Positions 2,825 through 53,885 of a DNA stretch of 64,000 bases are shown here, piece after piece. Under the pieces are notes generated by a model. That model did no database searches. It saw only the letters and a program-made list of their open reading frames with translations, and had not been told where the DNA came from. Each line of letters begins with the position of its first letter. Position 1 is the first letter of the stretch. The position numbers and the translations under genes are program-made. This DNA comes from Bryobacterales bacterium (lineage in GTDB: Bacteria > Acidobacteriota > Terriglobia > Bryobacterales > UBA6623), in contig JAPPLB010000150.1 of NCBI GenBank assembly GCA_028819575.1, positions 8,683 to 72,682 on the forward strand, read 5' to 3'.

Positions 2825-2945
2825 TTCTCACCACCGACAGCCGAAGCACGCGAAAAAGGCCGTGTTTCGTGTCTCGTGTCTCGTGATTCGTGAAAAACCA
2901 TAAAGGCCCTGTTGCGGGCGCCTTTTCCCTCCGCCCCGAGCGGAT
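2818..2945. repeat. truncated copy of the mosaic MITE-like element (one TIR, heptad array, partial module A)
   Basis: CCTGCATTTCTCACCAC followed by ...GTGTTTCGTGTCTCGTGTCTCGTGATTCGTG... It fills the HK-RR spacer and contains the RR start codon. Confidence 0.8.
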
Positions 2946-3004
2946 CATACAAGCGCGAAACATCCGGATCGGTGTCAACACCGCTTGCCCCGGAGGATTT
3001 CACA

Positions 3005-5971: not shown

Positions 5972-6317
5972 GGAGCACGTTCGCTGCCAAACGCGGTCTA
6001 TGGCGGAGGGCGTCTAAATGCTTGAAAAACGATAGTGTATCGGTATTTCTCGAAGCTGCCGAAAGAGTTCCCGGTGCAGGAATCCCGTTTCTGGAAGCCG
6101 AGCCTGTGAATCCTGGGATAATTCGGCATGGCATGCCCCTTCCGTTCGGGCTGTGCACGGGGCATTCTCATCATCGACAGCGGAGGACGTTGATCGAGTC
6201 TTGTTCGGGCAGGCACGGAATCAACCCTGACCCGCATTCTTCCGCAAAGCCCGGTTCAATCGTGCGGCCGCGCTCTCGACCGGTCTCCCTGAAGCGTGCG
6301 CAAAGCGCTGAAACCGG

Positions 6318-6463
6318 CCTGCATAAAAAAGGCTGTGATTCGTGTTTCGTGCCTCGTGATTCATGAAAACCTAAAAACAGTGGCTAGTGGCTAGTGAAAG
6401 CCTTGAAAGCCCTGATTCGTGATGCGCACGGACTTCGCCTCGTTGCCTGGCGAGAAATGCAAG
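6318..6463. repeat. degenerate copy of the mosaic MITE-like element (heptads plus CAGTGGCTAGTGGCTAGTGA module)
   Basis: Ends are CCTGCAT... and ...CGAGAAATGCAAGC. The internal sequence is the reverse complement of modules seen at 49440-49500. Confidence 0.7.
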
Positions 6464-6645
6464 CTGTTGAAACTAATTGGACGACTCAGCCGTACCGTCC
6501 CTTGCAGGGCAGGTGAGGCAGAGTGTGTTTTTGTTCACCAAGATTTACTTGACGCGCCCTGGCAAGGTAGCTAGAATCGAGGCTAGAATATTGCGGTAGA
6601 AATCCGTCCGGTCGAAGCGCCGGCCCGAACACGGTCCGTTTAGAG

Positions 6646-8307
6646 GTGGCTATGCGGCGAATGCTCATTGTTGGTTGGCTTGTTGTTTTCATCGCTCTCG
6701 GTTTCACTCCCTCGTTGGTTGAAGGAGCCGAGGGGGAGGAGCCGCGGCAACTCTCGAAGAAGGAAGAGAAGAAACGACTGAAGCAGCTTCAAGACGAGTT
6801 GCGCGGACCCTTCAGGAAGTGGATGCGTGAAGATGTCCGCTACATCCTGACGTCGGAAGAAAGAAAGGCTTTTGTTCGTCTGACGACGGACGAGGAGCGT
6901 GAGAACTTCATCGAGCAGTTCTGGCTGCGGCGAGACCCCACTCCCGACACGCAAGAGAACGAATACCGGGAAGAGCACTACCGGCGGATCGCCTACTCCA
7001 ACGAGCGGTACGCATCAGGCATTCCCGGCTGGAGGACCGACCGCGGCCGCATCTACATCACCTTCGGTCCTCCCGACGAGATCGAATCGCACCCCTCCGG
7101 AGGGATGTACCAGAGACCGTATGAGGAAGGCGGCGGAATGACCTCGACCTACCCCTTCGAGATCTGGCGCTATCGCTGGATCGAGGGTGTCGGCCAGGAC
7201 GTATTGATTGAATTCGTAGATCCCACGATGACAGGCGAGTACCGCATGACGTTGGATCCCTCTGAAAAGGACGCCCTGCTCTACGTGCCGGGCGCTGGCC
7301 TCACGCTCGCCGAGCAGATGGGGCTCTCGGAAAAACGCGACCGCTTCATGCGCAGCGACGGCACCCGCATGGGCACTCCGATCGGCGGTGCGGTGTCGAT
7401 GCGTTACAACCAGTTCGAACGACTGCAACGATGGGCCGCTCTGCAGAAACCTCCTGAGATCAAGTTCAAGGATCTCGAGGCCGTCGTTGACTCCAGCATT
7501 GAATACAACACCTTGCCGGTTCGGATCGAGGTGCAATATACGCGGATCACGAACGAGAATATTCTGGCCGGAGTATCGGTTCAGTTGGATAACAAGGACC
7601 TGGTCTTCCGCGAAGAAGACGGACGGCACAAGGCGATCGTCAACATCTACGGCCGCGTGACGACGATGACCCGTCGCGTGGCGGCGATCTTCGAAGACGT
7701 GGTCACCGTGGATACCACCACGGAACGGCTTCCGTACGAGTCTGAACGATCAGCGCTCTACCAGAAACCATTGATTCTGGTGCCGGGGATGTATCGCCTG
7801 GAAGTCGTCTCGAAAGACGTGGTCGGCGAGACCATGAGTACCTATCGCACGGCGCTCGAGGTCCCGCAGTACGACGACGAGCGACTGGCGTCGAGCACGT
7901 TGATTCTGGCGGACCGCATCGAGCGTGTCCCGATGCGGTCACTCGGTCTGGGCCAGTTCGTGATCGGCAGCTCGAAAGTGCGCCCGCGCATCAACGAGGA
8001 GTTCAAGCAGGATGAGCGCCTGGGCATCTACCTGCAGGTTTACAACCTGGGCGAGGACGACTCGAGTTCGGAACCCAAAGGCAGCGTGACCTACCAAGTC
8101 GCACGCCTCGATCAGCCGGATGAATTGCTGTTGGACTTCACCGAGCCGATCAGTCAGATTCGCGGCGCCACTTCGAAGCAGATGATCGTGGAGAAGTTGT
8201 TGCCGCTCAAGACGTTGGATCCGGGAGAATACCGGCTTAGCCTGAGAGTGAACGATTCCATCAGGAACGAAACCCTAACACCATCGACAACGTTCAGGGT
8301 CAGGTAG
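6646..8307 (+). CDS. GWxTD domain-containing secreted protein
   Basis: N-terminal signal-like helix and the literal motif GWRTDRGRIYITFGPPDEIESHP. Confidence 0.85.
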   Translation: MAMRRMLIVGWLVVFIALGFTPSLVEGAEGEEPRQLSKKEEKKRLKQLQDELRGPFRKWMREDVRYILTSEERKAFVRLTTDEERENFIEQFWLRRDPTPDTQENEYREEHYRRIAYSNERYASGIPGWRTDRGRIYITFGPPDEIESHPSGGMYQRPYEEGGGMTSTYPFEIWRYRWIEGVGQDVLIEFVDPTMTGEYRMTLDPSEKDALLYVPGAGLTLAEQMGLSEKRDRFMRSDGTRMGTPIGGAVSMRYNQFERLQRWAALQKPPEIKFKDLEAVVDSSIEYNTLPVRIEVQYTRITNENILAGVSVQLDNKDLVFREEDGRHKAIVNIYGRVTTMTRRVAAIFEDVVTVDTTTERLPYESERSALYQKPLILVPGMYRLEVVSKDVVGETMSTYRTALEVPQYDDERLASSTLILADRIERVPMRSLGLGQFVIGSSKVRPRINEEFKQDERLGIYLQVYNLGEDDSSSEPKGSVTYQVARLDQPDELLLDFTEPISQIRGATSKQMIVEKLLPLKTLDPGEYRLSLRVNDSIRNETLTPSTTFRVR

Positions 8308-11201: not shown

Positions 11202-11499
11202 CCTGCATTTCTCACCACCCGACGGCCCAAGCACGCGATAACAGGCCGTGATTCGTGACTCGTGATTCGTGAGCCCAAAACCCAGGCAGGCGTTACGACC
11301 GTCGCTCATGGGCGTCATTTGTTACGCTTGCGTGCCGTTCTCCATGGGGTAAAGGCCGTGTTGCGTGTCTCGTAACCCGAGGGCCGAAGGAGGCGATACG
11401 GCAAGTACGCCTGCGCACGCCTTTTCCTCCGCCCGGCTTGCGCCTCGTCCTGACGGCCCTCTCACGCACTTCGCCTCGCCACGTGGTGAGAAAGGCAGG
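11198..11499. mobile_element. full-length mosaic MITE-like element (302 bp), inverted orientation
   Basis: TIRs are TTAGCCTGCATTTCTCACCAC and GTGGTGAGAAAGGCAGG (1 mismatch). It carries internal heptads and module A. The left TIR contains the thpR stop codon. Confidence 0.85.
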
Positions 11500-11674
11500 A
11501 TAATCGTGATGCACAAAAAGTTTCACTGATCGGCGTCAATGGGCCGGCCGGCGAACTTCTTTTGCATGCATACTGCGACGAAGCGCAACGACAGCTTGTC
11601 GATCCGGCGGTCAGTTTCGACGAAGATCCGAAACGGAAACGCGTGCCGGGAGAACCCAGGGTCAAGGAGGCGAG

Positions 11675-12943
11675 ATGACGAGTTCAAGCAAACACATCTG
11701 TAGCGCAGTTGCATTCATCATGCTGACGGCTTCATGCTCACATTTCCAGGCAGGCACAGAGTTCACTGCGCTATCGGTACCGTTCGTTGCCCCCAAGGGA
11801 AGCTATGTAACGCAACAGGACCGTTATCACACGTTTCGCATTCCAGGCATGATCGTCTCGCCAGACGGTTCGATACTGCTTTTTGCCGAGGGGCGCCGAG
11901 GAGAGGGCAGCGACCCGAGGCGTGATGAGAACGCACCGATCGATCTTGTCATGCGACGAAGCACCGATAACGGCCGGACCTGGGAGCCCCTGGTGGTCAT
12001 CGATTCCGGTTATCGCCCTGACGGCGGACTGGTCGATTTCGCTGACCCGACTCCGGTGCTTGACGCGACGACCGGCACAGTGTTCTTGTTCTACGGACAG
12101 TGGCCGGACATTGCTCCGATTACCGTCGACTACGGACAGAGCACCGACCCCGATGACGGCAACCATGTCGTTTGGGTCCGCTCGAGCAGCGACAACGGCA
12201 TGACGTGGTCGGATCGTGAGCAAATCGTGTATCCGGACGAACCCCACGAGACGAGCGACGGGCTCTATTGGAGACAGGCTGAGCCCGGTCCGGGCAACGG
12301 CATCCAACTCCGATGGCAGGACGACTCGGGCGCACCCAATGGCCGACTGATCATTCCGGCCAAGCGAAGCGGCTCGAAAACTCCGAATGGAGAAGTTACG
12401 GTCGAGCCGTTCGTCTATTACTCCGATGACCACGGCAAGACCTGGCGTGTCGGCAACGTCACACCGGGACCGGATGCCAACGAGGATGAAGTTGTCGAGC
12501 TGACCGACGGCAGCGTACTACTGGATGCCCGGCAGAACAGTGGTGATTTCAGGCGGCGCCATCTGAGCACGGACGGCGGTGTCACGTGGGAAGCTGATCG
12601 ACCGGACGACATACCCATCACGGCGGTAGACGGCTCACTGGCGCGCTATTCCGCCGCACGCAGCATGCATGACCGGGATCGACTGCTTTTCTCCGGCCCG
12701 CGGGGTGAAGGCGGCCTCAACCGCAACAATATCACGGTCTGGACCAGCTACGACGAGGGAAAGACCTTCACGAATCCGGTTCAGTTCAACACCGGGTTTG
12801 CAGCCTACTCGGTACTGCAACGCTTGTCTGACGGCAAGATCGGAATGGTCGTCGAAACCGCGCAAGACGAGGGTGTCCGATACGGGGAGATCACGTTCTA
12901 TCGTTTCGACATCGCTGAATTGGAAAACAAGGACAGGGACTGA
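11675..12943 (+). CDS. exo-alpha-sialidase (BNR/Asp-box, GH33-like) lipoprotein
   Basis: Lipobox LTASC. The FRIP motif is present as FRIPGM. Four Asp-boxes: SxDxGxTW as STDNGRTW, SSDNGMTW, SDDHGKTW and STDGGVTW. Confidence 0.9.
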   Translation: MTSSSKHICSAVAFIMLTASCSHFQAGTEFTALSVPFVAPKGSYVTQQDRYHTFRIPGMIVSPDGSILLFAEGRRGEGSDPRRDENAPIDLVMRRSTDNGRTWEPLVVIDSGYRPDGGLVDFADPTPVLDATTGTVFLFYGQWPDIAPITVDYGQSTDPDDGNHVVWVRSSSDNGMTWSDREQIVYPDEPHETSDGLYWRQAEPGPGNGIQLRWQDDSGAPNGRLIIPAKRSGSKTPNGEVTVEPFVYYSDDHGKTWRVGNVTPGPDANEDEVVELTDGSVLLDARQNSGDFRRRHLSTDGGVTWEADRPDDIPITAVDGSLARYSAARSMHDRDRLLFSGPRGEGGLNRNNITVWTSYDEGKTFTNPVQFNTGFAAYSVLQRLSDGKIGMVVETAQDEGVRYGEITFYRFDIAELENKDRD

Positions 12944-13291
12944 CAGGGCGTGGCGAGGAAAGCTGGGCAATGCGTTCCCTCTAACGAACGAGCGGCCGCC
13001 GCTCTCAGAAGCCGATATAGGTGTCAGAGTACGGATCGTGCTCACCACAAGACAGCTCGCGCGAAATCGCCTGCCCATTGGCTGCTCCTCGATTGGGGCC
13101 ACCTAAAAAGCTCGGGCGAGAGCCGATCTGCTCCCGCTCTGAGCGTTGTGCCGAGAGTCGCGCCTGTTAACAGCTTTTCCGTGAATGCTGCTCGAGACTC
13201 CCTTCAACTCTCCGACGTACCTCGCTGTCCGATCATACACACGCGTTGAGGTCGGATCGGACATGATTTGCTAGAAAGTAGATCAACCGCC

Positions 13292-14215
13292 ATGACAATT
13301 CGTGAAATCCATCAATCCGGTCCATATCGGTATAGCTACTCGCCGTTTCATCCGCCCATCGCCACGGTCGAGCCGGGTGAGACAGTGGCGATTCATACCG
13401 TTGACGCTTTCGAGAACAAGATGACACCCGAGGTGCGGCATTTTGCCGATGTCTGCACCTACCCTTTCTTGAATCCGCAAACCGGACCGATCGTCGTCAA
13501 TGGAGCCGAGCCCGGCGACACGCTCGCCGTCAAGATCCACGAAATCACTCCAACCCGCGACCACGCCATAACGGGTACGATTCCGTACTTCGGCGGCCTT
13601 ACATCCACGAAGCTCGACCCGACATTGCAGCCGCCGCTGGAGGAGCAATGGCTGTACCTGCCTATCGACGATGCGGGTATTCACTTCGACGCGCAGAGAG
13701 TGATCCCCTATGAGCCGTTCCTGGGCACGATGGGCGTCGCACCGGAGATTGAAGCCGTCAATGCGCTGACGCCCGACTACTACGGCGGCAACATGGACTG
13801 CGTGGAGACACGGCCAGGCAATGAAGTGTGGTTCCCAGTACACGTCGACGGCGCACACTTCTTCACCGGCGACGCTCACGCCAGCCAGGGCGACGGAGAG
13901 CTTACAGGCGTGGCTCTGGAGATTCCGGCCCGCGTAACGGTGTCGTTCGAGGTGAAGAAAGGGTATGGCGTCAAATGGCCCCGCATCGTGAGCAGTGATT
14001 TTCTCATGGTTGCGGGCAGCGCTCGTCCTCTGGAGGCGGCTGCCCGAATCGCCTGGGTCGAGCTGATCGACTGGATGGTCAACGACTACGGCTTCGACCG
14101 CATGAAGGCCTACCATCTGCTAGGACAGGTAGGGCAAATGCGTCTCGGCAACATGGTCGATCCCAAATACACGATGGTCGCCAAATGCCCTCGGCGCTAC
14201 CTCGACCGCCTCTGA
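13292..14215 (+). CDS. acetamidase/formamidase family protein
   Basis: N-terminal pattern ...PPIATVEPGETVAIHTVDAFE... and ...GGNMDC... are typical of the FmdA/AmdA family. The ATG at 13292 is preferred over the TTG at 13268. Confidence 0.75.
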   Translation: MTIREIHQSGPYRYSYSPFHPPIATVEPGETVAIHTVDAFENKMTPEVRHFADVCTYPFLNPQTGPIVVNGAEPGDTLAVKIHEITPTRDHAITGTIPYFGGLTSTKLDPTLQPPLEEQWLYLPIDDAGIHFDAQRVIPYEPFLGTMGVAPEIEAVNALTPDYYGGNMDCVETRPGNEVWFPVHVDGAHFFTGDAHASQGDGELTGVALEIPARVTVSFEVKKGYGVKWPRIVSSDFLMVAGSARPLEAAARIAWVELIDWMVNDYGFDRMKAYHLLGQVGQMRLGNMVDPKYTMVAKCPRRYLDRL

Positions 14216-14398
14216 TTTCGATTAGGCAGCATACCCTCGAACGACTTGGCCTGGCTCTTCCGATGCTCCGCGTCCGACAGCGCTTGCGCTGTCAGAACAC
14301 ATTGCCCTGTTGGTTGTGCAACGGGGATATTTCAGATGTGCCTGACGTCGTTGCTCAGATTCTCAGAATGGGTTTGTCCGAGCCTCGGGTCTGAACGC

Positions 14399-15868
14399 CT
14401 AGGCCAACAACTTGTGAATGACGTTGCCACCCACATCCGTCAGGCGGAAGTCGCGTCCTTGAAACTTGAACGTAAGCTTCTCGTGGTCCAGGCCAAGTAG
14501 ATGCAAGATCGTGGCTTGCACGTCATGAATCGGAGCAAGATCCTCTACAGCATTGAAGCCGAAGTCGTCGGTTACACCGATCTTTTGACCGGGTTTGATG
14601 CCGCCTCCGGCGAACCACATCGTGAAAGATTCGATGTGATGATTCCGGCCGACCGTCGCACGGAGTTGACCCATCGGCGTACGGCCGAACTCCCCTCCCC
14701 ACACGACCAATGTCTCGTCAAACAGGCCACGCTGCTTGAGATCCTTGATCAGAGCCGCGCAGCCCTGATCGATTTCTTTTGTGACGTTATCGAGACCCTC
14801 GTTGAGGTTGTTGTTGCCGCCGCCGTGATGATCCCAGTCTGTGTGGTAGAGCTGCACGAAACGCACACCACGCTCAACGAGCCGCCGCGCCAACAAGCAG
14901 TTGTTCGCGAACGACTTGGCTCCTGGCTCGGCGCCATACAGATCGAGCGTTTTCTTGCTTTCGCTTGAGAAGTCGATCAGTTCCGGTCCGCTCGTTTGCA
15001 TACGGTAGGCCATTTCATACGAAGAAATGCGTGTAGCGATCTCAAAATCACCCGTTTCCTCGAGGTGCTGCAGGTTGAGTTGGCGGATCGTATCGAGCGT
15101 TCGTTTCTGCCGGCTCGTGCTGACACCCTTGGGGTTCGAAAGATTCAGGATCGGATCGCCGCTGCTTTGAAACGGCACGCCCTGGTGAGTGGTCGGCAGA
15201 AATCCACTGCCCCAATTGAGAGCGCCGCCGCGGGGGCCGCGCGTCCCGGATTGCAGGACGACAAAGCCCGGCAGCTCCTCCGACTCGCTCCCCAATCCGT
15301 AGGTCACCCATGCCCCCATGCTGGGATGCCCAAAACGAGATGAGCCTGTATTGGCGTAAATCTTCGCTGGAGCGTGGTTGAAATTCTCCGCCTTGACGGT
15401 CGAGACGAAGGACAGATCGTCAACTACTCGCGCCGTGTTGGGCAGGCACTCGGAGACGTAGCGGCCCGACTCGCCGTAACGCTTGAACTTGCGCTTCGTG
15501 CCCAATAGCTGCATGGGTTCTTTTTCGAAGCTCTCCATGAAGGCGAAGCGTTTGCCTTCGAGGAACGACTTCGGGATCGGCTTGCCGTCGTACTCCTGCA
15601 GCGCGGGTTTGTAGTCAAAGAGTTCGAATTGACTGGGACCGCCGGCCATGAAGAGGTAAATGACGCTCTTCACTCGAGGGCTGAAATGCGGTTTTTTGGG
15701 CGCCAGAGGATTCCTGACCTCCGGAAGCTCGGCCGCCGAGGCGTTCCCGCGCCGAGACAATGGCGGATACAGCAAAGACGTAAGGGCGATTTGTCCCAGT
15801 CCTACGAAACACTTCTGAAAAAAGTGACGACGGGTGTCGGTTAGCAGCAGAGTGTCATGTGGAGGCAT
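14399..15868 (-). CDS. DUF1501 domain protein (sulfatase-like, Tat-exported)
   Basis: Twin-arginine leader (TRRHFFQKCFVGLG). Conserved DUF1501 blocks: HTDWDHHG and GGEFGRTP. Confidence 0.88.
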   Translation of the reverse strand: MPPHDTLLLTDTRRHFFQKCFVGLGQIALTSLLYPPLSRRGNASAAELPEVRNPLAPKKPHFSPRVKSVIYLFMAGGPSQFELFDYKPALQEYDGKPIPKSFLEGKRFAFMESFEKEPMQLLGTKRKFKRYGESGRYVSECLPNTARVVDDLSFVSTVKAENFNHAPAKIYANTGSSRFGHPSMGAWVTYGLGSESEELPGFVVLQSGTRGPRGGALNWGSGFLPTTHQGVPFQSSGDPILNLSNPKGVSTSRQKRTLDTIRQLNLQHLEETGDFEIATRISSYEMAYRMQTSGPELIDFSSESKKTLDLYGAEPGAKSFANNCLLARRLVERGVRFVQLYHTDWDHHGGGNNNLNEGLDNVTKEIDQGCAALIKDLKQRGLFDETLVVWGGEFGRTPMGQLRATVGRNHHIESFTMWFAGGGIKPGQKIGVTDDFGFNAVEDLAPIHDVQATILHLLGLDHEKLTFKFQGRDFRLTDVGGNVIHKLLA

Positions 15869-33512: not shown

Positions 33513-33721
33513 CTAACCTGCATATCTCACCACGTGGCGAGACGAATTGCGTGAGAGGGTCGTCAGGACTAGGCACAAGCCGGGCGGAGGAAAAAGGCGC
33601 GAGCCGCTTGGCGCGCGCAGACGTACTTGAACAGTACGTTGAGCACGGCAAGCAAGCGTAACGAAGTCATGGCGGTCATACCGCGTACTTCGGCCGTCGG
33701 GTGGTGAGAAATGCAGGTTAG
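33513..33721. mobile_element. short (209 bp) mosaic MITE-like element with 21-bp TIRs
   Basis: TIRs are CTAACCTGCATATCTCACCAC and GTGGTGAGAAATGCAGGTTAG. It is absent from the two paralogous spacers. Confidence 0.9.
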
Positions 33722-34902: not shown

Positions 34903-35191
34903 TAGCCTGCATTTCTCACCACGTGGCGAGGCGAAGTGCGTGAGAGGGCCGTCAGGACGAGGCGCGAGCCGGGCGGAGGAAAAAGGCGTGAGCCAAGCGC
35001 ACTTGCCAAATCACTTCCTTCACCCCTCTTGTCACGAAACGCGGCCTTCCCGGTTCACTGGCCGTCAGACATTTCTTCTGGAGCGAACCAGACCCCCTCT
35101 CATGGTTTTCACGAATCACGAAACACGAAACACGAATCACGGCCTTTTTCTCGCGTGCTTCGACCGTCGGGTGGTGAGAAATGCAGGTTAG
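34903..35191. mobile_element. full-length mosaic MITE-like element (289 bp)
   Basis: Perfect 17-bp TIRs CCTGCATTTCTCACCAC / GTGGTGAGAAATGCAGG. Modules A, S and the heptad array are all present. Confidence 0.9.
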
Positions 35192-38698: not shown

Positions 38699-38914
38699 CT
38701 ACGAACGAGGCGGAACGATGATCTTACATCTGGGGCCGCTGGATTGGCCCAGCTTTCTGCCCAACGTCACTAGCGGGCAATCGAGCGCCTCGGCCAACAC
38801 CAGTTCCGGGCCGGCCGGATAGCCCTCGGTGACCGCGGATTCCGCCCACTTCCCCTCCTTCCCCGAGTCGACCAGGGCTGCGGCCAGCACGGACGCATCG
38901 ACGACCACCGTCAC
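38699..38914 (-). pseudogene. vapC: internally deleted PIN-domain VapC toxin
   Basis: GTG overlaps the antitoxin stop (GTGA). VTVVVDASVLAAALVDS is the PIN N-terminus and ...ALDCPLVTL... is the PIN C-terminus, but only 71 codons remain. Confidence 0.65.
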
Positions 38915-39189
38915 CGCCGGTCCATATCGCGGGCGCTGAGAATGTTGGCGGGTCGGACACGGGTTTCCGCCGCCGCCTTGCGCTCCCGCACTCCTTGCAG
39001 CCAAGTGTCGAGAGAAGGACGGGAGGCGATGCGTTCCAACTCGGAGCGGAGAAATTCCTGCATCGATTGGCGTTGCAACGCCGCCCGCGCCGCAAGCTCG
39101 TCGCGCACTTCCTGGGGGACTCCTCTGATGGTGATCTGTACCGGTATGAACGCATTATGCCATATTAATATTGATTTGGGGCCAGACAC
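38911..39189 (-). CDS. vapB: ribbon-helix-helix (FitA/VapB-like) antitoxin
   Basis: ...PVQITIRGVPQEVRDELAARAALQRQSMQEFLRSELERIA is a typical RHH plasmid-stability antitoxin. The N-terminal extension and GTG start are uncertain. Confidence 0.75.
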   Translation of the reverse strand: MSGPKSILIWHNAFIPVQITIRGVPQEVRDELAARAALQRQSMQEFLRSELERIASRPSLDTWLQGVRERKAAAETRVRPANILSARDMDRR

Positions 39190-39191
39190 CT

Positions 39192-40484
39192 ATGGACGAA
39201 GATGCTTTAACTGCCGCACTGAAGAATGTGCTCATCCAAGTTGATGACGTCAGCATCGCCACTCGTGATGTCAGCATCCGCACACAGAGTGGATATCTAT
39301 TAACAGAAGGCCCTCTGTTGGCGGAAATGCGAGAGTCGAATATTGACCACGAGCTTGCAAAGATTATTTTTCCCATTTTGGAAGTGCAGCCAGAATTCAA
39401 AGACAAAGCACTGATGATCAACACGGGTGGCGGATCCATGGGATTCCACAGTCAATTTGTTGCAACCGTGTTAGTTCGCGAGGCACGGCGTCGGAAATCG
39501 GCAAAGGATGCTGTCAGGTGGCTAAAAAAAGTGCTAGAGACCGACAGTGCGGAGATGTTGGTTATTCAGACTCTGTGGGGCATATCTCCGAAAAACCGGA
39601 TTTCCGTCTGGAAAGACGTAGAGTTACTTCCGTTCGAATCTCTGCCCCCTTCTCGTCAGAAGGAGCAAATCACAAATGTTCTCGATTGGCCTTACAATTT
39701 GCGCCTTCCAACACTTTTTTTTGCACATGAACCTCCTACTGCAGCGCTAATTTCGAAGACGGAAGTCCGTCCCTTTCTGATTGACAAATCCATAGAAGAA
39801 AACTCAACGGATAGAGACATCCGTAAAGCCTACCCTCCGTTGGATGACATCAGACTCTGCCTGGGTCTGGAAGGTCCATCGATCATTATTGCTGGACCAA
39901 GTTGGTTCCAATACGTCGATGCAGACTTGGAAGCGGCCCTTATCGCCACGAGTAGCAGCTATGGCAGTCAGGAGATATTACCTTTTGGTCTTCTTATAGA
40001 TTCTTTAGAGACGACAACTAACCTGCAAGCTATTGTGCGAGGATACATGGCATTGGAACAGAGAGTAAAAAATCAGGTTCATATCGCTCTTGAGAGGCTC
40101 CATCAAGCTCTTATCCGCACGGATCCGGCCGCACGTGCACTTGAAGTATCAATCGCGTTAGAAACATTGCTGATTGATGACCCTGGTGAGCATACATTCA
40201 AGATCTCGTATCGTGCGTCTCTGCTTATTTCTGACACGGTTGAGGAACGGATGGAAGCCAGGGCAATAATTCAGGCTGCTTATAGCATGCGGAGTGCTCT
40301 TGTGCATAGCGGTCAGACTAAGTCCATGGTTAAGATCAAAGGTCAGGGAGAGAAGTCAGCGGAAGAAGTCGCTAGTAGTGCTGTCACAATCACTGCGCTC
40401 GTGATCAAGCGAATCATAATGCGAGGTAGTATCCCTGAATGGAATCGATTTGAGTTATCAGACGGTAGAATATGGAAGTCCTAG
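39192..40484 (+). CDS. low-GC orphan protein with unknown N-terminal domain and C-terminal HEPN-like domain carrying Rx4H (candidate ApeA-like defence RNase)
   Basis: Compositional break at the island edges. AAYSMRSALVHSG contains R-x4-H at 40290-40307, inside a helical C-terminal region of about 140 aa. ATG 39192 is preferred over TTG 39171. Confidence 0.6.
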   Translation: MDEDALTAALKNVLIQVDDVSIATRDVSIRTQSGYLLTEGPLLAEMRESNIDHELAKIIFPILEVQPEFKDKALMINTGGGSMGFHSQFVATVLVREARRRKSAKDAVRWLKKVLETDSAEMLVIQTLWGISPKNRISVWKDVELLPFESLPPSRQKEQITNVLDWPYNLRLPTLFFAHEPPTAALISKTEVRPFLIDKSIEENSTDRDIRKAYPPLDDIRLCLGLEGPSIIIAGPSWFQYVDADLEAALIATSSSYGSQEILPFGLLIDSLETTTNLQAIVRGYMALEQRVKNQVHIALERLHQALIRTDPAARALEVSIALETLLIDDPGEHTFKISYRASLLISDTVEERMEARAIIQAAYSMRSALVHSGQTKSMVKIKGQGEKSAEEVASSAVTITALVIKRIIMRGSIPEWNRFELSDGRIWKS

Positions 40485-40486
40485 CA

Positions 40487-40717
40487 TTAGCGGACCCTCC
40501 ATCTGACGAGTTTGGTATGTTCTGCTGAACAGTTACATGTGCAGATGGGGTAGTCCAGAAGAGGGGTTCCCCCGGCCTTTTCCAGAAGGGCAAGAAGGCA
40601 GTTGAGGTCGTGCACGAGCGGGAAGTCGATATAACCTGCGGCGAAGCTACTGATCAGGCCGAGCATCCGCATGAACAGATCCCAGAGGGACTGGATTTCG
40701 TAGGTGGCCATGGTCAA
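40487..40717 (-). pseudogene. chimeric relic: duplicated 3' fragment of the SSS transporter fused to a HEPN gene fragment
   Basis: MATYEIQSLWDLFMRMLGL and FAAGY copy residues of the 40826-43378 product. IDFPLVHDLNCLLALLEKAGG resembles IDFPYVHDLARLLSMLKDAGE of the HEPN gene. Confidence 0.7.
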
Positions 40718-40727
40718 TCTGAGGAGC

Positions 40728-40775
40728 GCAGGCTACTAGCCTGCCTGAGAAGAGTGCGGGCAAGATGCCCGCGCA
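40728..40775 (-). terminator. two adjacent GC-rich hairpins downstream of the transporter operon (REP-like or terminator)
   Basis: GCAGGCTA-C-TAGCCTGC at 40728-40744 and GCGGGC-AAGAT-GCCCGC at 40757-40775. There is no U-tract. Confidence 0.4.
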
Positions 40776-40825
40776 AGGAGAGCAGAAGCCGCCGGCGCGG
40801 GGTTGCACAACCGCCCGGTCTGCGA

Positions 40826-45029: not shown

Positions 45030-45070
45030 TTACCCTGCATTTCTCACCACGTGGCGAGGGATGCAGGTGA
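45030..45070. repeat. collapsed hairpin version of the MITE-like element (two TIRs back to back)
   Basis: TTACCCTGCATTTCTCACCACGTGGCGAGGGATGCAGGTGA. Confidence 0.6.
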
Positions 45071-46883: not shown

Positions 46884-46961
46884 CCGCGGAAGCATCACCG
46901 CAAGCACCCTGGGAACACGGGCTGCGAAGAAAAAACTCGCCCGCATCCCCGCCGTCGGTCC

Positions 46962-49268
46962 TCAGCGCTTGGGCCAGTCGAGGTGGCGATGCAGGAAATC
47001 GAAGCTGCCCTCGGCGTTGATCTCGTGGGGTCCGAGAAAGAATTCGATCTCGGTCCTGTCCGCTATGCCTAGTTCCGCGTAGTGTTGGCGCACCTTTGCA
47101 TACTCATAGGCGACCCACTCGTCGGGAGCTACGCCGTCATGGTGGCCGCGTTCGACCATGAACGGACGGGGCGCCATCATCTTGGCGAGGTCGCTGTAGT
47201 TGAAGGTGTTGCCCAGGTTGAACTCGAACATCTCGTACTCGCCCGTGAAGACGTAGCTGTAGCGGTGCGCGTCGCTGGTGTTCTTCCAGATCCATTCGTT
47301 GAAGTCCGCCGAGCAGATGGAAAGGGCGTATTTCTTGAGCAGGGGCGGCACCCTCACCGCCGTCTTTCCCCCATAGGAGAGGCCGTAGAAAGCGATCTGT
47401 TTCCGATTGACAAACGGTAACGTCTCCAGCCATTCCAGGATGCGGTCATGCTGGCCCAGAATGAAGGAGAAGAGCGACACCCCCAGGGGGTTGGCCTTGC
47501 GTTGCAGGACGCGGAAGTCATCACGGCCGATGTAGGGGTTCTGCGGCGCGAATACGATAAAGCCTCGATCGGCCAGGCGCGCGCCGTAGTGGTGGTAGGG
47601 TCCCTTGATCGCGGAATCGACCAGCATCCGGGGTCTGCCCTCGAGTCCGTGTTGGGTGACGACGACGGGGCGCTGTTCGCCGGGCTTGAGGTCATTCGGC
47701 AGGAGCAGGATGCCATAGGCAAAGACTTCAGGCCAGACGGGCAGGACCACTTGGTAGCCTTTCCATGCCGCAGTCTCGTACGTGAGCCGGGTGTAGGCTT
47801 CGAGCGGTTCGGAGGGGTCGGGCAGGCGTCCGATCACCTCTTCCCAGAGAACCTTTCGGTACTCGTCGGCGCTTTGCTCCCAGTCAGCGACCGTGGCGCG
47901 CTCCGCTTTGGCCCAGAATCGCTTGCGCGTGAACTCGGACTTCCGGACCAGCGCCTGCGTATGGTCGACAAGCTCGTCGAACTGCCGCCGGAGACGCCGG
48001 GAAGGATCGAAGGCGCGGCGTTGCTCGCTGGGCGTCGAGGGGTTCTCGCCAACGGTGCTTGAGGTGTCGAAGAGGGAAACGAACGCTTGCAGGGTCGCTC
48101 CGGCCCCCGGGTCATGACCGTTGCCGGGTTGGAATTGAAGATGGTCCTCCGCGCCCAACCGGGCAAAGGTGGGTCGGGCTCGGTCTATCTCGGCCCGGAC
48201 CTCGGATGCAGAAGGTGACGGGATCCGGCCCGGAGCCGCTCCGCTCCGCGTCGGGGTGACGGGCGGCGGCCCGCTGATCGGAGGTGTGGGCGCTGCTTCG
48301 ATCACCAGGCGGCGCGGCGCGATGAGACGCGCGATCTCCGCATCGCCATACCGTTCCAGCAGCCGCCAGACATTGCGGTAGATGGGTTCGCTCCAGAGCC
48401 CCTCGCGCGGGCCGAAGTAGCCGCTGACGAGACTCGCGTCGATGCGGGTGTCGATGGCGGCGCTATAAAGGGCGAGCAGGCCGCCCTCGCCGTATCCGGC
48501 AACCCCGACCTTCGCGTCAGGGTCCTCTGCCTTGATGGCGTCGACCGCCGCAAGCACCTTCTGGACTTCGTAGCCGATGATGTGACGTCCCATCTCGAAC
48601 GCCATGCTGTAGATGAACTCGCGATGCGGCTGATTGGTGTAGCGGATGCGCGGGTGTCCTGACCAGTCGTCGGCGCGGTCGATAAGCGTGGGAACGATGA
48701 CGCGCAGGCCCGATTCGGCGAGCAGGCGCGGGTATTGGGCGGCTTTGGCGACACCCGGGGCCAGTCCCACGGCCGCCTCGGGCGGCACGTCCGCATCAGG
48801 CAGGGCGATGACGTGTCCGCGCGGTCTTCCCGTGGGCTGGAGCAGAAGCCCCTCCCCGTGAACGCCGGAAAATACGGGCCAACGGATCGTATGAATTTCA
48901 TACGCGGATGTCTTCGCGGCCAGCGAAGGTTGACGAGTCGTGCCGGCAAGCTCGAATCCGTCGCTCGGCAGTCGATCATCGACGGCGCCGATGATGCGTC
49001 GAAAATGCTCCCGGTTGGCCGCTACGGAAGTTTCGTACGCTTCCGGAGAAGAATAGTCGGAGTTCCAGTGCAGCCGGCGCTGGGATGCCAGGAACTCCGT
49101 CGCAACCGTCAGATAGCGGTTGATGCCCGAGACCATGCGGGCCGCGAGATCGCCCTCCCATTCGAGAGGCCGTGTGCCGTCCAGCGGTTGAGCCTCGAGG
49201 CGGCAAACCGGACTAAGCGGCAGAGTGAGCGCGAAAAACAAGCAGGCAAAAGGAGTTGAACGGGACAT
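46962..49268 (-). CDS. secreted protein with two alpha/beta-hydrolase-like halves (C-terminal half carries the GLSYG nucleophile elbow)
   Basis: Signal peptide. N-terminal half has GYGEGG with no Ser. C-terminal half has IAFYGLSYGGKTA (GxSxG). Confidence 0.6.
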   Translation of the reverse strand: MSRSTPFACLFFALTLPLSPVCRLEAQPLDGTRPLEWEGDLAARMVSGINRYLTVATEFLASQRRLHWNSDYSSPEAYETSVAANREHFRRIIGAVDDRLPSDGFELAGTTRQPSLAAKTSAYEIHTIRWPVFSGVHGEGLLLQPTGRPRGHVIALPDADVPPEAAVGLAPGVAKAAQYPRLLAESGLRVIVPTLIDRADDWSGHPRIRYTNQPHREFIYSMAFEMGRHIIGYEVQKVLAAVDAIKAEDPDAKVGVAGYGEGGLLALYSAAIDTRIDASLVSGYFGPREGLWSEPIYRNVWRLLERYGDAEIARLIAPRRLVIEAAPTPPISGPPPVTPTRSGAAPGRIPSPSASEVRAEIDRARPTFARLGAEDHLQFQPGNGHDPGAGATLQAFVSLFDTSSTVGENPSTPSEQRRAFDPSRRLRRQFDELVDHTQALVRKSEFTRKRFWAKAERATVADWEQSADEYRKVLWEEVIGRLPDPSEPLEAYTRLTYETAAWKGYQVVLPVWPEVFAYGILLLPNDLKPGEQRPVVVTQHGLEGRPRMLVDSAIKGPYHHYGARLADRGFIVFAPQNPYIGRDDFRVLQRKANPLGVSLFSFILGQHDRILEWLETLPFVNRKQIAFYGLSYGGKTAVRVPPLLKKYALSICSADFNEWIWKNTSDAHRYSYVFTGEYEMFEFNLGNTFNYSDLAKMMAPRPFMVERGHHDGVAPDEWVAYEYAKVRQHYAELGIADRTEIEFFLGPHEINAEGSFDFLHRHLDWPKR

Positions 49269-49398
49269 GGAAACAGCCCCCTGTCGTCGAACACGAGAAG
49301 ACCGGACACTCCCGGCGTGGAAGCGATCCAGGGGAAGTCTGATTATCGAAGACGATAGACCGGAAAGTCGAGTGGACGGGTTCGCCGTGCGGCCCCTC

Positions 49399-49620
49399 TG
49401 AGCCTGCCTTTCTCACCACGCGGCGAGGCACAGTCCGTGCGGGTCACGAATCAGCGCTTTCCAGGCTTTCACTAGCTACTAGCCACTGCCTTTAAGGTTT
49501 TTACGAAACACGGGACACGAATCACGGCTTTTACGCAAGCAGCTTTGGAGCAACGGCCGTACCGCCTGCTTGGTTTTGGGGTCACGAATCACGAGACACG
49601 AAACACGAATCATGGCTTTT
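49399..49620. repeat. MITE-like element copy with an intact left TIR and a truncated right end
   Basis: GAGCCTGCCTTTCTCACCAC..., the TCACTAGCTACTAGCCACTG module and two heptad arrays. It ends abruptly at the AT-rich vapB promoter. Confidence 0.8.
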
Positions 49621-49634
49621 ATACTTTTATAAGG

Positions 49635-49660
49635 TAGAATAACTGGTCATATTGACCGGT
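49635..49660 (+). promoter_or_regulatory. putative vapBC promoter -10 (TAGAAT) and palindromic operator ACTGGTCATATTGACCGGT
   Basis: A 7/8 inverted repeat lies 14 nt upstream of the AGGAG RBS. Type II antitoxins commonly autoregulate through such palindromes. Confidence 0.4.
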
Positions 49661-49673
49661 TTAGGAGTGCAAT

Positions 49674-49925
49674 ATGCGTGAAGTACGAACTACCGAGGCC
49701 AAGTCGCGCCTGGCGGAACTCCTGCGGGCGGTCGAGTACGGCGAGACGTTTGCAATCACCCGCCACGGCAGGCCGATTGCGCATCTGGTTCCGGCAAGCG
49801 ACCAGCGTAAAGCGTCACAGAAAGAAGCGGTGGAGCGCTTCCGAGCCCACCGTCGGCAGTGGCGCTGCATTGGGATGACGCCCGAGGAGATCCTCGCGTC
49901 GATTCACGAAGGACGTCGCTGGTGA
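49674..49925 (+). CDS. vapB: Phd/YefM-type antitoxin (VapB partner)
   Basis: MREVRTTEAKSRLAELLRAVEYGETFAITRHGRPIAHLVP is the canonical Phd/YefM N-terminus. Its stop overlaps the toxin's GTG. Confidence 0.88.
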   Translation: MREVRTTEAKSRLAELLRAVEYGETFAITRHGRPIAHLVPASDQRKASQKEAVERFRAHRRQWRCIGMTPEEILASIHEGRRW

Positions 49926-50341
49926 GCCGTTTCGTGCTCGACGCATCCGTCGCGTCGGCGTGGCTCTTTGACGACGAAAACGATCCGCGGTCGAACGAGG
50001 CGTTAGCGCGCCTTGAAAGTGAAGTGGCGCTGGTGCCGCAGTTTTGGCACATCGAAGTCAGGAGCGCACTGCTCGGCGCAGAACGCCGAGGCCGCATACG
50101 AGTGGATGAAGTCGGCGAACGATTGCGCAGGCTGGGTGAGTTGCCGATCAGGACGGACATGGAACCGGACTTCAGAGTCGCTTTTACGCTGGCCCGAACA
50201 CATGGACTTTCCATGTACGATGCGGTGTATCTGGAGTTGGCTCAACGGTCGGGGGCGCCTCTTGCGACACTGGACCAGGCGCTGGCGCGCGCAGCCGTTG
50301 CTGCGGGGCGTCAGTTGATTGAGCCGCTCACCGAGCTGTGA
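49922..50341 (+). CDS. vapC: PIN-domain ribonuclease toxin VapC
   Basis: VLDASVASAWLFDDE...YDAVYLELAQRSGAPLATLD carries the PIN acidic residues. GTGA overlap with the antitoxin. Confidence 0.88.
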   Translation: MSRFVLDASVASAWLFDDENDPRSNEALARLESEVALVPQFWHIEVRSALLGAERRGRIRVDEVGERLRRLGELPIRTDMEPDFRVAFTLARTHGLSMYDAVYLELAQRSGAPLATLDQALARAAVAAGRQLIEPLTEL

Positions 50342-50427
50342 GGGTTCATGACTCCGAAGACAGCCGGGCAGGACGAGTCGAACCTTGCGAAGAACCCCGC
50401 AATCGATCTGTTGAAAGCTCTCGGCTA

Positions 50428-50748
50428 CTCCCACGTGCCGCAGGACGAGGCGCGAGCCGGGCGGCGAAAAAAGGCGCGAGCAGTGTACTGGCCGTATCGC
50501 CTCATTCGGCCCTCGGGTTACGAGACACGCCACACGGCCTTTACGGTTCATCGGCCGTCAGACATTTCTTCGGGAGCGAACCAAGCCTCACCGAATGCCT
50601 TTCACGAGACACGAAACACGAGTCACGAATCACGGCTTTTATGCTTTTCACGAATCACGAGACACGAAACACGAATCACGGCTTTTTTTCGAATCACGGC
50701 CTTTTTCCCGCGTGCTTCGATCGTCGGGTGGTGAGAAATGCAGCTTAG
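50428..50748. mobile_element. full-length mosaic MITE-like element (321 bp) with an eroded left TIR and an intact right TIR
   Basis: Contains module A, module S, two heptad arrays and ...CGTCGGGTGGTGAGAAATGCAGCTTAG. Confidence 0.8.
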
Positions 50749-50795: not shown

Positions 50796-52850
50796 TCAGA
50801 CGGCTACGAGCGGCGCGATGACCAGGGCGACGATGGACATCAGCTTGATCAGGATGTTCATCGAGGGGCCTGAGGTGTCTTTGAACGGGTCGCCGACGGT
50901 GTCGCCGACGACGGTTGCCTTGTGAGCTTCGCCGCCCTTCTGCTCGCCCGCTACTTCGCCCTTCTCGATGGCCTTCTTGGCGTTGTCCCAGGCGCCTCCG
51001 GCGTTGGCCATGAAGAGCGCCAGCAGCACGCCGGCGACGGTGGCTCCGGCGAGCATGCCGCCGAGAGCTTCCGGGCCCAGCAGGTAGCCGACGGTGACCG
51101 GAGCGCTGACGGCGATGACTCCGGGCACGACCATTTCTTTCAGCGCGGCCGCCGTGGCGATGTCGACGCAGCGGGCGGCGTCGGGCTTGACGCCGGGCTC
51201 GCCGGCCAGCAGCCCCTTGATTTCGCGGAACTGCCGCCGAATTTCTTCCACCATCAGACTGGCTGCGCGGCCGACGCTTGTCATCGTTTGCGCCGCGATG
51301 ATGAATGGCAGCGTGCCGCCGATCAGTAGCCCGATCACGACGCGGGCATCGTTGATCTGGATGACGACCGCTTCGAGACCCTGGCTGAGGCGGACGGCGT
51401 CCACAGCCTGAGTGTAGGCGGAGAAGAGCGCCAGGGCGGCGAGGGCGGCGGAGCCGATCGCGAAACCCTTGCCCATGGCCGCTGTGGTGTTGCCCAGCGA
51501 ATCGAGCTCGTCGGTGATGGCGCGCACGTCGGGTCCGAGACCGGCCATCTCCGAGATGCCGCCGGCATTGTCGGCAATCGGGCCATACGCATCGACGCTC
51601 ATCGTGATGCCCACCGTCGCCAGCATGCCGACCGCCGCAATGCCTATTCCATACAGGCCGGCTACCTCATGTGCGAGGTAAATCGCGAGACAGATCATGA
51701 ACACGGGGAAGGCGCAGCTCCGGAAGCCGACGGCCAGACCCTGAATGATGTTGGGGGCGGCGCCGGTTTTGGAAGCTTCCGCAATATCCCGGATCGGCCC
51801 CATCGACGTGTAGTACTCGGTGATAAAGCCGATTGCGACGCCGGCCACCGTGCCGGCCAGGACGGCCCAGAACACGGATTGGCTCACTCCGACCGCGCCA
51901 ACCGCGGCGTAGCCGCCCGCGAGGAAGAGCAGGGCGGCGAGCCAGGCGGAATAGCGGAGAGCGGATGCCGGCCCCATGCTCTTGAGAACCTGGATCGAGA
52001 GGATGCCGAGCAGGGACGCAATCGTACCCACTGCCGCCAGCACGAGCGGCAGCGACATCAAGCCCGCGCGGACCGCCTCGGCGCTGTTGCCCGCGGCTAG
52101 CAGTTGCAGTCCTTCGGTGGACAGCGTGGCGGCGATGGCCAGGGTGGCGATCATCGACCCTACGTAGGATTCGAAGATATCGGCGCCCATGCCGGCGACG
52201 TCGCCGACGTTGTCGCCGACGTTGTCGGCGATGACACCGGGATTGCGAGGATCGTCTTCCGGGATGCCCGCTTCGACCTTGCCCACCAGGTCGCTGCCGA
52301 CGTCAGCGGCCTTGGTGTAGATGCCTCCGCCCACGCGGGCGAACAAGGCGATGGAGCTCGCTCCCATCGCGAATCCGTTGATGTAGACGGCCTCTTCCAC
52401 GCCGGAGAAGACTTGCGCGAAGATCCCGACGCCAAGCAGGCCAAGCCCGGCTACCGCGAGGCCCATCACCGATCCGCCGCCGAATGCGACGAGCAGCGCG
52501 GCGTCCGTACCCTCGGCTCGCGCGGCTTCGCTGGTGCGCGAGTTGGCCTTGGTGGCCGCTTTCATTCCGACGAAACCGGCGACCACGGAGAAGATCGCTC
52601 CCGAGATGAAGCAGATGGCGGTTTCGACGCTGAGCTTCCAGGCCAGCAGCGCGGCGACAATGACGACGAAGACGCCCAGAATGCGGTATTCGCGATAGAG
52701 GAACGCCATCGCGCCGCGATGGATCAGTTCGGAGATTTCCCGCATGCGCTCATTGCCGGGCGAGCGTTTGCCGACCATGATGAAGAGCAACAGAGCGCAT
52801 AAGAGCCCGAGCAAACCGATATACGGAGTGAGTGCAAGAAGATCGTTCAT
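50796..52850 (-). CDS. hppA: membrane-bound proton/sodium-translocating pyrophosphatase
   Basis: ...[18 protein letters not shown]..., ...DNAGGISEM... and ...[23 protein letters not shown]... are H+-PPase signatures. About 16 TM helices. Confidence 0.95.
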
Positions 52851-53137
52851 TTTCCGAGATAAGACAGAACTGACAATATGGGGCGGGGGACCCCTGCCTG
52901 ATACCTTCTACCGGCGGTCCGGGAAGACCGCAATGGGAATTCTCAGCGTAACATGCATTCGTCAAGGATGGCTACGGCGGCGGCGTTGCATGTCGGCGTA
53001 ATGTGAAAAGTTCGTCCTGCGAGCCGGACAGGACGTTCCCCTTCATCTGACCTGAAACATCCTGTTGATCAAGCCGGGTTGACACTCATCCGGATGTTTC
53101 CTGTCTGAATGCTCCGCCCAGGAGCGGAGAAAAAAAC

Positions 53138-53212
53138 GGCCCGTCAGACATTTCTTCTGGAGCGAACCAAGCCCCACCAAATGCATTTCACGAAACACGA
53201 GTCACGAAACGC
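53138..53212. repeat. solo module S plus heptads of the MITE-like family
   Basis: GGCCCGTCAGACATTTCTTCTGGAGCGAACCAAGCC...TTTCACGAAACACGAGTCACGAAAC. Confidence 0.7.
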
Positions 53213-53752: not shown

Positions 53753-53885
53753 TCAGCCTGCTTTTCTCACCAAGGGGCGAGGCGAAGTGCGTGAGAGGGC
53801 CGTCAGGACGAGGCGCGCGGCGCAAGCCAGCGCAAGTTCCGAGGTTTTCACGAAACACGAGACACGAAACACGAGACACGGCCTT
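53753..53885. repeat. MITE-like element copy (left TIR, module A, heptads) abutting the start codon of the kinase-deaminase gene
   Basis: TCAGCCTGCTTTTCTCACCAAGGGGCGAGGCGAAGTGCGTGAGAGGGCCGTCAGGACGAGGCG...CACGAAACACGAGACACGAAACACGAGACACGG. Confidence 0.8.

Follow-up and report, generated by a model that had tools for sequence, protein, structure and literature searches.

We analysed a 64,000-nt stretch of Bryobacterales bacterium DNA (the window; GCA_028819575.1, contig JAPPLB010000150.1, positions 8,683 to 72,682, forward strand), in which a toxin-antitoxin pair, vapBC, lies between two truncated copies of a miniature inverted-repeat transposable element (MITE). The cassette occupies the spacer between a hydrolase gene and a pyrophosphatase gene. 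Comparison with related loci, numbered L001 to L026, points to the MITE as a landing site for recombination. In the reading that we favour, with a probability of about 0.55, the outer terminal inverted repeats (TIRs) belong to a single resident MITE as its two ends, recombination within MITE sequence brought the cassette in and can take it out again, and later deletions trimmed the inner ends. All positions are given within the window.

Alleles of the hydrolase-pyrophosphatase site form a series. The L008 site (flanks 90-92% identical) is empty: it reads CCCCTCTTTGGGGCAACG, has no MITE, and the outer TIRs mark its exact limits. In the closest relative, L026, whose flanks are 98.8-99% identical, there is one complete MITE and no vapBC, and the idiosyncratic outer junctions, CTCTGA/GCCTGC and GCAGGT/TA/GAGGC, are as in the window. 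L026 matches the window only over 49240-49427 and from 50690 on, and within the element the first 26 nt and the last 56 nt are common to both. Solo and occupied alleles thus have the same outer junctions and differ only inside the MITE, which favours insertion, exchange or removal through MITE recombination. An initial annotation of the sequence had named MITE copies as recombination landing pads among its two readings, and this is the one that fits best. The site with a single MITE and no cassette that it suggested looking for exists (L026), as does one without any MITE (L008), and parts of the bracketed unit recur at other loci (L010-L012, L015). Its refuting case of a unit always present and confined to one place does not hold.

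Occupied alleles at 94-97% identity are of two kinds. L025 and L016 have a complete left MITE, then a second MITE that is missing its 5' end and stops at the same MITE/vapB junction as in the window; there follow vapBC, 51 hsdR codons, TA, a complete right MITE and a second TA. L007 and L013 have vapBC with no left MITE: the same flank and TA are followed by 92 nt of older upstream sequence, 65 nt of which are common to the MITE-free cassette of L004. The right junction of L013 is that of the window, and that of L007 is 72 nt shorter through a deletion between two GCAGGACGAG repeats. In L007, L016 and L025, vapBC identity (96.3-97.2%) tracks flank identity (94-96.7%), which indicates that the cassette is old at this locus. 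Its absence from the 99%-identical L026 would most simply be a recent loss, a direction that follows from parsimony in a population that recombines. Several alleles, including the window and L026, are short-read metagenome assemblies.

The spacer is an accretion hotspot. L007 (reverse complement, 11575-15670; 95% identical) holds about 4 kb of extra cargo that comprises open reading frames (ORFs) of 198, 207 and 195 aa and an HNH endonuclease; one complete MITE and several others, nested or truncated, are scattered through it. When L013 2126-4489 is set beside L009 1-1503, a GAF/histidine-kinase/response-regulator gene is seen to replace the pyrophosphatase gene after the hydrolase-side cassette in L013; in L009 that kinase gene is found some 3 kb upstream of the cassette. 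A chromosomal rearrangement in L013, with its breakpoint at the cassette/MITE cluster, is the likely cause.

The two bracketing copies in the window have the same orientation, and their outer ends form a 23-nt inverted repeat that is 87% complementary (49404-49426 against 50721-50743), and each outer TIR departs from the family consensus at one position. With this shared orientation, the "outward TIRs" amount to a left end and a right end, exactly what a single element has. That vapBC lies between two MITE copies with their outer TIRs kept was confirmed by Pfam, TIR counts and BLAST. Each copy has indeed lost its inner end, as first described; these ends are missing rather than eroded, and their loss is secondary, since both flanking MITEs are complete in L025 and L016. 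The left copy does break off abruptly at the cassette, 9 nt further right than the 49620 first given, and it begins at 49402 rather than 49399. MITE homology extends through ...TATACTTTT, and from 49629 on the sequence aligns with MITE-free cassettes. One of these is in L004, a 101-kb contig that also carries ParA, PemK and other toxin-antitoxin genes; there, 93% identity covers window 49629-50401 and nothing else, and no MITE occurs within 6 kb of it. The left break at 49628/49629 is therefore real. Both inner junctions are reproduced in a Logan contig (L003) and two ENA scaffolds (L001, L002) with identical or 99.8%-identical DNA. An Rfam search of the window gave no match.

At the right inner end, the initial annotation placed the start of the MITE at 50428 with an eroded TIR. 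The copy starts at 50441, and the preceding CTCCCACGTGCCG is hsdR coding sequence (...GYSHVP). The 13 nt at 50428-50440 are hsdR codons 27-31 and are found in alleles where hsdR runs on for about 97 nt before a complete MITE, so the eroded-TIR reading was ruled out. Annotators should be warned that an apparent eroded TIR was in this case the coding remnant of a neighbouring gene. Between the copies lie vapB and vapC as described; the remainder, first put at about 85 nt, is the 45 nt upstream of vapB and the 31-codon hsdR remnant. The remnant matches HSDR_N at E 0.015, below the Pfam cut-off, and has no helicase domains, only the first 31 codons. The same N-terminus is found on longer proteins that match HSDR_N at E 8.7e-16 (P0279; full-database search), and we read the segment as a remnant of hsdR and not as a gene. 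In L009, L010-L012, L016 and L025 the frame continues ...LGYSHVPPQDH... to 51 codons; next come TA, or CA in L010-L012, and a complete MITE whose left TIR is present, with an X repeat of about 140 nt, described below, in between in L009. Relative to L025 and L016, the window has a deletion of about 147 nt with GCCG microhomology, in which the remainder of hsdR', the TA and 48 nt at the start of the MITE were lost.

The cassette adjoins MITEs at four different Bryobacterales loci. In L010-L012 it lies between SelA and a DinB-family gene, has the window's left MITE/vapB junction and is 95.8% identical over 49592-50441 with no gap. The body of the window's left MITE is 93% identical to the left MITE of L010, and the left boundary at this locus is exactly the TIR end. 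The SelA-DinB spacer is empty in L009, where the cassette lies upstream of FlK-SelA with a complete MITE before it. At a further locus, L015, the cassette is found between an sCache-domain gene and a peroxidase gene and shows the window's hsdR'/MITE junction with no right TIR. The left MITE/vapB junction pattern had no match in GTDB species genomes or JGI metagenomes; the vapB-start pattern was found only in OZ241991.1 among GTDB genomes and had no match in JGI metagenomes or viral contigs.

All four combinations of a left junction (old or MITE) with a right junction (long hsdR' or deleted) were found, in L009, L013, L010/L025 and the window. Both the MITE/vapB and the hsdR'/MITE junction are illegitimate joins expected once each, and the four combinations therefore require recombination between the junctions. 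The window's left copy is itself a mosaic: its first 26 nt are identical to those of L025 at the same locus (24 of 27 for L010), and its body matches L010, at the other locus, and not L025. A proposal that three independent left junctions had converged upstream of the -10 through selection on the toxin-antitoxin pair was withdrawn; L015 and L025 may represent one diverged event, and the sequence there is AT-rich and ambiguous.

These shared junctions bear on an alternative, that vapBC was resident in the spacer and that abundant MITEs inserted independently at TA on each side and were later truncated, with no functional link. MITEs are dense, at about 10 copies per 64 kb and for the most part in spacers; the right MITE of L025 and L016 has TA on both sides like a simple insertion at the cassette end, L017 has a further MITE inside the hsdR remnant, and the cassette of L004 has none for 6 kb around. 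Against this, illegitimate MITE/cassette junctions would hardly arise twice, and their presence at different loci argues that the cassette moves with MITE pieces. The recurrence of the cassette beside MITEs at four loci, and the restriction of the difference between solo and occupied alleles to the MITE interior, also speak against coincidence, and we consider independent insertion improbable.

The favoured reading, recombination at a resident MITE, would proceed as follows. One MITE would have been resident in the hydrolase-pyrophosphatase spacer, and vapBC with the remnant of a former hsdR neighbour would have become lodged between its ends. The cassette appears to circulate among Bryobacterales genomes and loci with MITE fragments on its flanks, and entry was most likely by homologous recombination of these fragments with the resident MITE, the MITE serving as portable homology; the process would depend on host recombination. 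The flanking copies are direct repeats, and the cassette can be lost again when they recombine, with a solo MITE left behind. At the right inner end, the microhomology deletion of about 147 nt would have joined codon 31 of hsdR directly to sequence inside the right MITE, and the left inner end was probably lost by rearrangement within heptad-rich MITE bodies. The intact toxin-antitoxin genes probably influence which deletions persist, since loss of the antitoxin gene would poison the cell. Such a protective role is suggested by the intact genes, by purifying selection and by the MITEPsy2 precedent (PMC6354349).

Several observations weigh against this account. The homology common to the window and the solo-MITE allele is short, at 26 + 56 nt, and the MITE body of L026 resembles MITE-1 of L025 instead of combining the two copies in the window, so that neither of these alleles, L026 and the window, descends directly from the other. 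Both L026 and the window are short-read scaffolds, in which the assembly of repeats can mislead, and exact common stretches are about 26-39 nt; the window junctions are confirmed by L001-L003. Neither a circular intermediate nor a donor molecule was seen. The variable sites of vapBC, compared in order to place a crossover, gave no clear mosaic, the window having mainly private substitutions. The vapC dN/dS is 0.3-0.9, from few substitutions, and toxin-antitoxin activity and its protective effect are predictions. Finally, in L007, L013 and L009 the left end of the MITE-free cassette directly follows TA, a hint that transposon-like ends of its own may once have bounded the cassette or its ancestor.

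This last point can be extended: the cassette could be an old TA-duplicating non-autonomous element with decayed ends (CCCTCGCCGCG... to ...GATCACGTGCTTC) that inserted in the same hot TA as the MITE, the MITEs being secondary. The MITE-free left end starts at the same nucleotide after TA at the hydrolase locus (L007, L013) and at another locus (L009), TA follows the right end of the cassette in L025 and L016, and 10 nt of the left end match TIR-proximal MITE sequence in reverse complement. The 27-nt left end CCCTCGCCGCGAGCACGCGCAAAGAGG gave a local alignment score of 20 against MITE ends, compared with a shuffle mean of 18 (sd 2.5), and 20% of shuffles reach 20, so that the similarity does not exceed chance. 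The right end runs on as native sequence in L004 and P0273, which marks a breakpoint and not a terminus, and no allele has both cassette ends abutting the flanks. We regard an old element of this kind as quite improbable.

The other reading of the initial annotation was a composite transposon with the toxin-antitoxin pair as cargo of about 1.35 kb. In this case a transposase encoded elsewhere would use the outer TIRs and move the whole unit (49402-50745) as one non-autonomous element. Outward-facing ends are present at both extremities at the sequence level only, and they form a good TIR pair. The clean L008 site ends at the outer TIRs with a plausible TCT-TA-GAG target. The MITE family is mobile, with TA at 14 of 18 complete copies and presence/absence polymorphisms (L008 against 46906-46961; L001 against the window). 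The left MITE and the cassette occur together at a second locus with the left boundary exactly at the TIR end, and MITE-type pairs mobilise intervening DNA experimentally (TIME-COMP, PMC4133298).

Movement as a whole unit is nevertheless undemonstrated, and the alleles argue against it. The solo MITE of the closest relative has the same outer junctions, which would date these junctions to a single-MITE insertion, and L007 and L013 have vapBC at the site without a left MITE, starting at the same TA. The suggested search for the unit elsewhere yielded parts only (the left junction at SelA-DinB in L010-L012, the right junction at the L015 locus), with no complete unit at an independent site with its own duplication. 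The SelA-DinB copy has CC-CA and not TA at its left flank, a different right junction and an insertion that runs about 100 nt past the right TIR into another repeat; the L015 locus has no right TIR. The target-site duplication, also proposed as a check, does not help to decide: the outer junctions read GA...TA and, as they also flank the solo MITE of L026, are not attributable to the composite, and a 2-nt TA gives no discrimination. TA was found at 0 of 3 independent vapBC-associated left ends compared with 14 of 18 ordinary copies, a weak signal (p ~0.04). No transposase with such TIRs was noticed in about 350 kb of sequence examined, and the junction pattern is absent from the GTDB and JGI collections. 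A composite transposon is possible and, on these data, unlikely.

A tentative extension of the recombination reading treats vapBC as a transposase-independent hitch-hiker. The direct MITE flanks would release a circle made of a hybrid MITE and the toxin-antitoxin pair, which could re-enter any MITE copy by host homologous recombination, and killing by VapC would select against loss and limit erosion of the flanks. If so, the abundant MITE family would be a genome-wide docking network for addiction modules.

The gene pair has, at the sequence level, the features of a type II toxin-antitoxin system: a PIN toxin and a small antitoxin gene directly upstream and translationally coupled. The two genes overlap by 4 nt (GTGA), the vapC GTG start overlapping the vapB stop. 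The PIN match of VapC covers residues 5-125 of 139, with acidic residues by eye in VLDASV, HIEV and MYDAVYLE. NCBI, which lists both under a 'Bryobacterales bacterium' MAG, names the products a prevent-host-death family antitoxin and a VapC family toxin; the antitoxin is of the Phd/YefM type and not of the classical VapB fold, and "vapB" is a name by position. The dN/dS of vapB against other alleles is 0.06-0.17, and the vapC ORF is intact in every allele checked (aligned or called as a 139-aa gene). Upstream of vapB are a -10-like TAGAAT (49635-49640), a 17-nt palindrome CTGGTCATATTGACCGG (49643-49659) that is a candidate operator, and AGGAG (49663-49667). The initial annotation saw an AT-rich vapB promoter at the break. 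This sequence does belong to the cassette, and the stretch may act as a promoter; a scan for consensus sigma-70 promoters upstream of vapB found none.

Insertions into the cassette itself were also seen. In L009 (OZ241991.1, a GTDB representative), vapB is split by a 1877-nt insertion (5022-6898, corresponding to window 49819/49820) with a group II intron reverse transcriptase (RVT_1 + GIIM); vapC is intact there, so that the toxin gene would be without an intact antitoxin gene. In L017 a complete MITE (1096-1270) lies inside the hsdR remnant, downstream of vapC.

The flanking repeats belong to a family that is probably undescribed. In the window, the TIR core GCCTTTCTCACCAC has 12 matches against 0.49 expected and the heptad-end motif 9 matches against 0.02 expected, BLAST found the copies and fragments counted above, and many more were seen in related loci. 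Complete copies are 136-337 nt long and non-coding, with termini G-CCTGCATTTCTCACCAC...GTGGTGAGAAATGCAGG-C and bodies of variable modules and CACGAAT-type heptad arrays; the TA beside 14 of 18 distinct complete copies is present on each side. The family thus combines TIRs on a short non-coding multicopy element, a target-site duplication and insertion polymorphism between related genomes, including the vapBC site itself (L008 empty, L026 with a solo copy). In L008 (7333-7509) a complete copy, bordered by TA left and right, separates the hydrolase gene from the AMP-binding gene, and window 46906-46961 has no such copy; we take this as independent evidence that the family has been mobile since the lineages split. 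No cognate transposase with matching TIRs was noticed in the roughly 350 kb of related loci examined, whole genomes not having been scanned, and the MITE TIR had no match in viral contigs. The TA duplication suggests a parent transposase that is presumably of the IS630/Tc1-mariner type, possibly of the IS5/IS427 type.

Further variation was seen within and beside MITE copies. Bodies (window 49494-49628, 50602-50706 and other copies) contain arrays of the 7-nt units CACGAAT, CACGAGA and CACGAAA that end in CACGGC-T-rich tracts. Unit number differs among copies and alleles, the window's left copy having an 88-nt block that L010 is without, and the arrays may be a substrate for unequal recombination. 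The solo MITE of L026 (reverse complement, 4335-4390) holds a G+C-rich, hairpin-like insert of about 55 nt (CCCTCTCCCGCTGGGAGAGGG...) absent from other copies. Window 45033-45068 holds a 36-nt mini-element with nothing but the left TIR of the MITE and, directly after it, the terminal 9 nt of the right end (CCCTGCATTTCTCACCACGTGGCGAGGGATGCAGGT); it was left either by extreme internal deletion or by excision. A second repeat, X (about 90-140 nt, ...GTGCGGATCA...TTTCACATCAG), directly adjoins MITE ends via CTAG, and in L012 it also stands by itself. X could be either a separate MITE family or an extension of the present one, and because of it the right-hand limit of the cassette insertion at SelA-DinB is less sharp. 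A strain polymorphism lies beside a second toxin-antitoxin pair, formed on the minus strand by a FitA-like antitoxin (38911-39189) and a PIN ORF that may be truncated (about 38699-38920): over 39163-40808 (L001 201-1138) the window has a 437-aa ORF (39171-40484), and the 99.8%-identical L001 has a complete MITE (L001 461-667) and other sequence. Features of the locus and further repeat copies are listed in Table 1.

Table 1. Positions of the vapBC locus features, flanking genes and repeat copies (window coordinates unless an allele is named).
Feature	Position	Strand	Basis or remark
Dienelactone-hydrolase-family gene (left flank, 768 aa)	46962-49268	-	Marker for locating orthologous loci
GA in place of the usual TA target duplication	49400-49401		Left outer junction CCCCTCT-GA-GCCTGC; CTCTGA/GCCTGC also flanks the L026 solo MITE
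Left MITE copy	49402-49628	+	Left TIR 49402-49427 intact; body of CACGAAT/CACGAGA/CACGAAA heptad arrays; last ~45 nt with right TIR gone
vapB upstream region, part of the cassette	49629-49673 (45 nt)	+	Homology to MITE-free L004 (93%) and L007 (96.7%) begins here
vapB antitoxin gene, 83 aa, Phd/YefM family	49674-49925	+	PF02604 PhdYeFM_antitox, E 2e-12
vapC toxin gene, 139 aa, PIN domain, GTG start	49922-50341	+	PF01850, E 1.5e-13
Type I restriction hsdR remnant, first 31 codons (MTPKTAGQDESNLAKNPAIDLLKALGYSHVP)	50348-50440	+	Weak HSDR_N match, E 0.015
Right MITE copy, begins CAGGACGAGG	50441-50745	+	First ~48 nt including whole left TIR absent; right TIR 50721-50745 intact
TA at right outer junction, GCAGCT-TA-GAGGCAACG	50746-50747		Window sequence; compared with L008, L026
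H+-translocating pyrophosphatase gene (right flank, 684 aa)	50796-52850	-	Marker for locating orthologous loci
Reference complete MITE copy, same family	34906-35186	+	TIR matches and BLAST
Other complete MITE copies	11202-11498 (-); 33517-33716		TIR matches and BLAST
Partial MITE copies	2817-2911, 6316-6465, 45033-45068, 53141-53210, 53755-53885		BLAST
X repeat copies	2940-3008, 53047-53117 (-); L010 7958-8049; L009 7617-7750; L012 2189-2272		

The vapBC locus adds an example from a new phylum to kinds of events that are already known, and its value lies in an unusually complete allele series rather than in a new principle. The natural series comprises an empty site, a solo MITE, the cassette between complete MITEs, trimmed versions and copies at other loci, and it follows at nucleotide resolution the gain, loss and shuffling of a chromosomal toxin-antitoxin module in an uncultured soil lineage of Acidobacteriota. 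If MITE recombination is the vehicle, it would help to explain the patchy distribution of toxin-antitoxin modules among close relatives without a dedicated transposase, and the presence of such modules at rearrangement breakpoints.

Related arrangements are known from other systems. Toxin-antitoxin passengers of the Tn3 family lie beside the transposase and resolvase genes of their own element (Lima-Mendez et al. 2020, PMC7157771). The vapBC pair is likewise a type II system embedded in a transposable-element context; unlike these passengers, its unit has no transposition gene. Mobile insertion cassettes such as MIC231 of Bacillus cereus carry passenger genes without a transposase between inverted repeats of the insertion sequence (IS) type, a single TIR pair matching a known IS whose transposase is proven to mobilise them. 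vapBC also lies without a transposase between IS-type inverted repeats, and any mobilisation of it would likewise depend on a transposase encoded elsewhere, but its ends are truncated MITE copies with repeat bodies, and a partner IS was not found.

TIME-COMP elements of Pseudomonas are composites of two MITE-type repeats, Tn3-derived, with 5-6 bp duplications, and their transposition was caught in a trap plasmid (Szuplewska et al. 2014, PMC4133298). Here too, two transposase-less repeats with IS-like TIRs bracket unrelated DNA, and the outward TIRs could end a larger element. The vapBC-flanking MITEs differ in that they duplicate TA, their inner ends are deleted, a solo-MITE allele has the same outer junctions, and movement of the whole unit is undemonstrated. 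The formation of solo long terminal repeats (LTRs), along with the reinsertion of repeat-flanked segments through homology, offers another parallel: occupied and solo alleles have identical outer junctions and differ within the repeat alone. The MITEs described here are much shorter than LTRs or IS26, and LTR elements and IS26 encode their own integrase or transposase, whereas the homology at the vapBC site amounts to tens to a few hundred nt.

On plasmid pPsv48C, two direct 228-nt copies of MITEPsy2 recombine and delete the interval between them at about 4e-3, and the enclosed toxin-antitoxin pair TA8 counter-selects this 50-fold (Bardaji et al. 2019, PMC6354349). The likeness is that direct MITE repeats of about 230 nt flank a segment with a type II toxin-antitoxin pair, and that recombination of MITE with MITE there yields a solo MITE. 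The plasmid interval is 8.3 kb and its loss was measured; the vapBC locus is chromosomal, its interval is essentially the toxin-antitoxin pair alone, and the evidence is comparative. It provides a testable chromosomal counterpart to the plasmid result that a toxin-antitoxin pair counter-selects MITE-mediated deletion.

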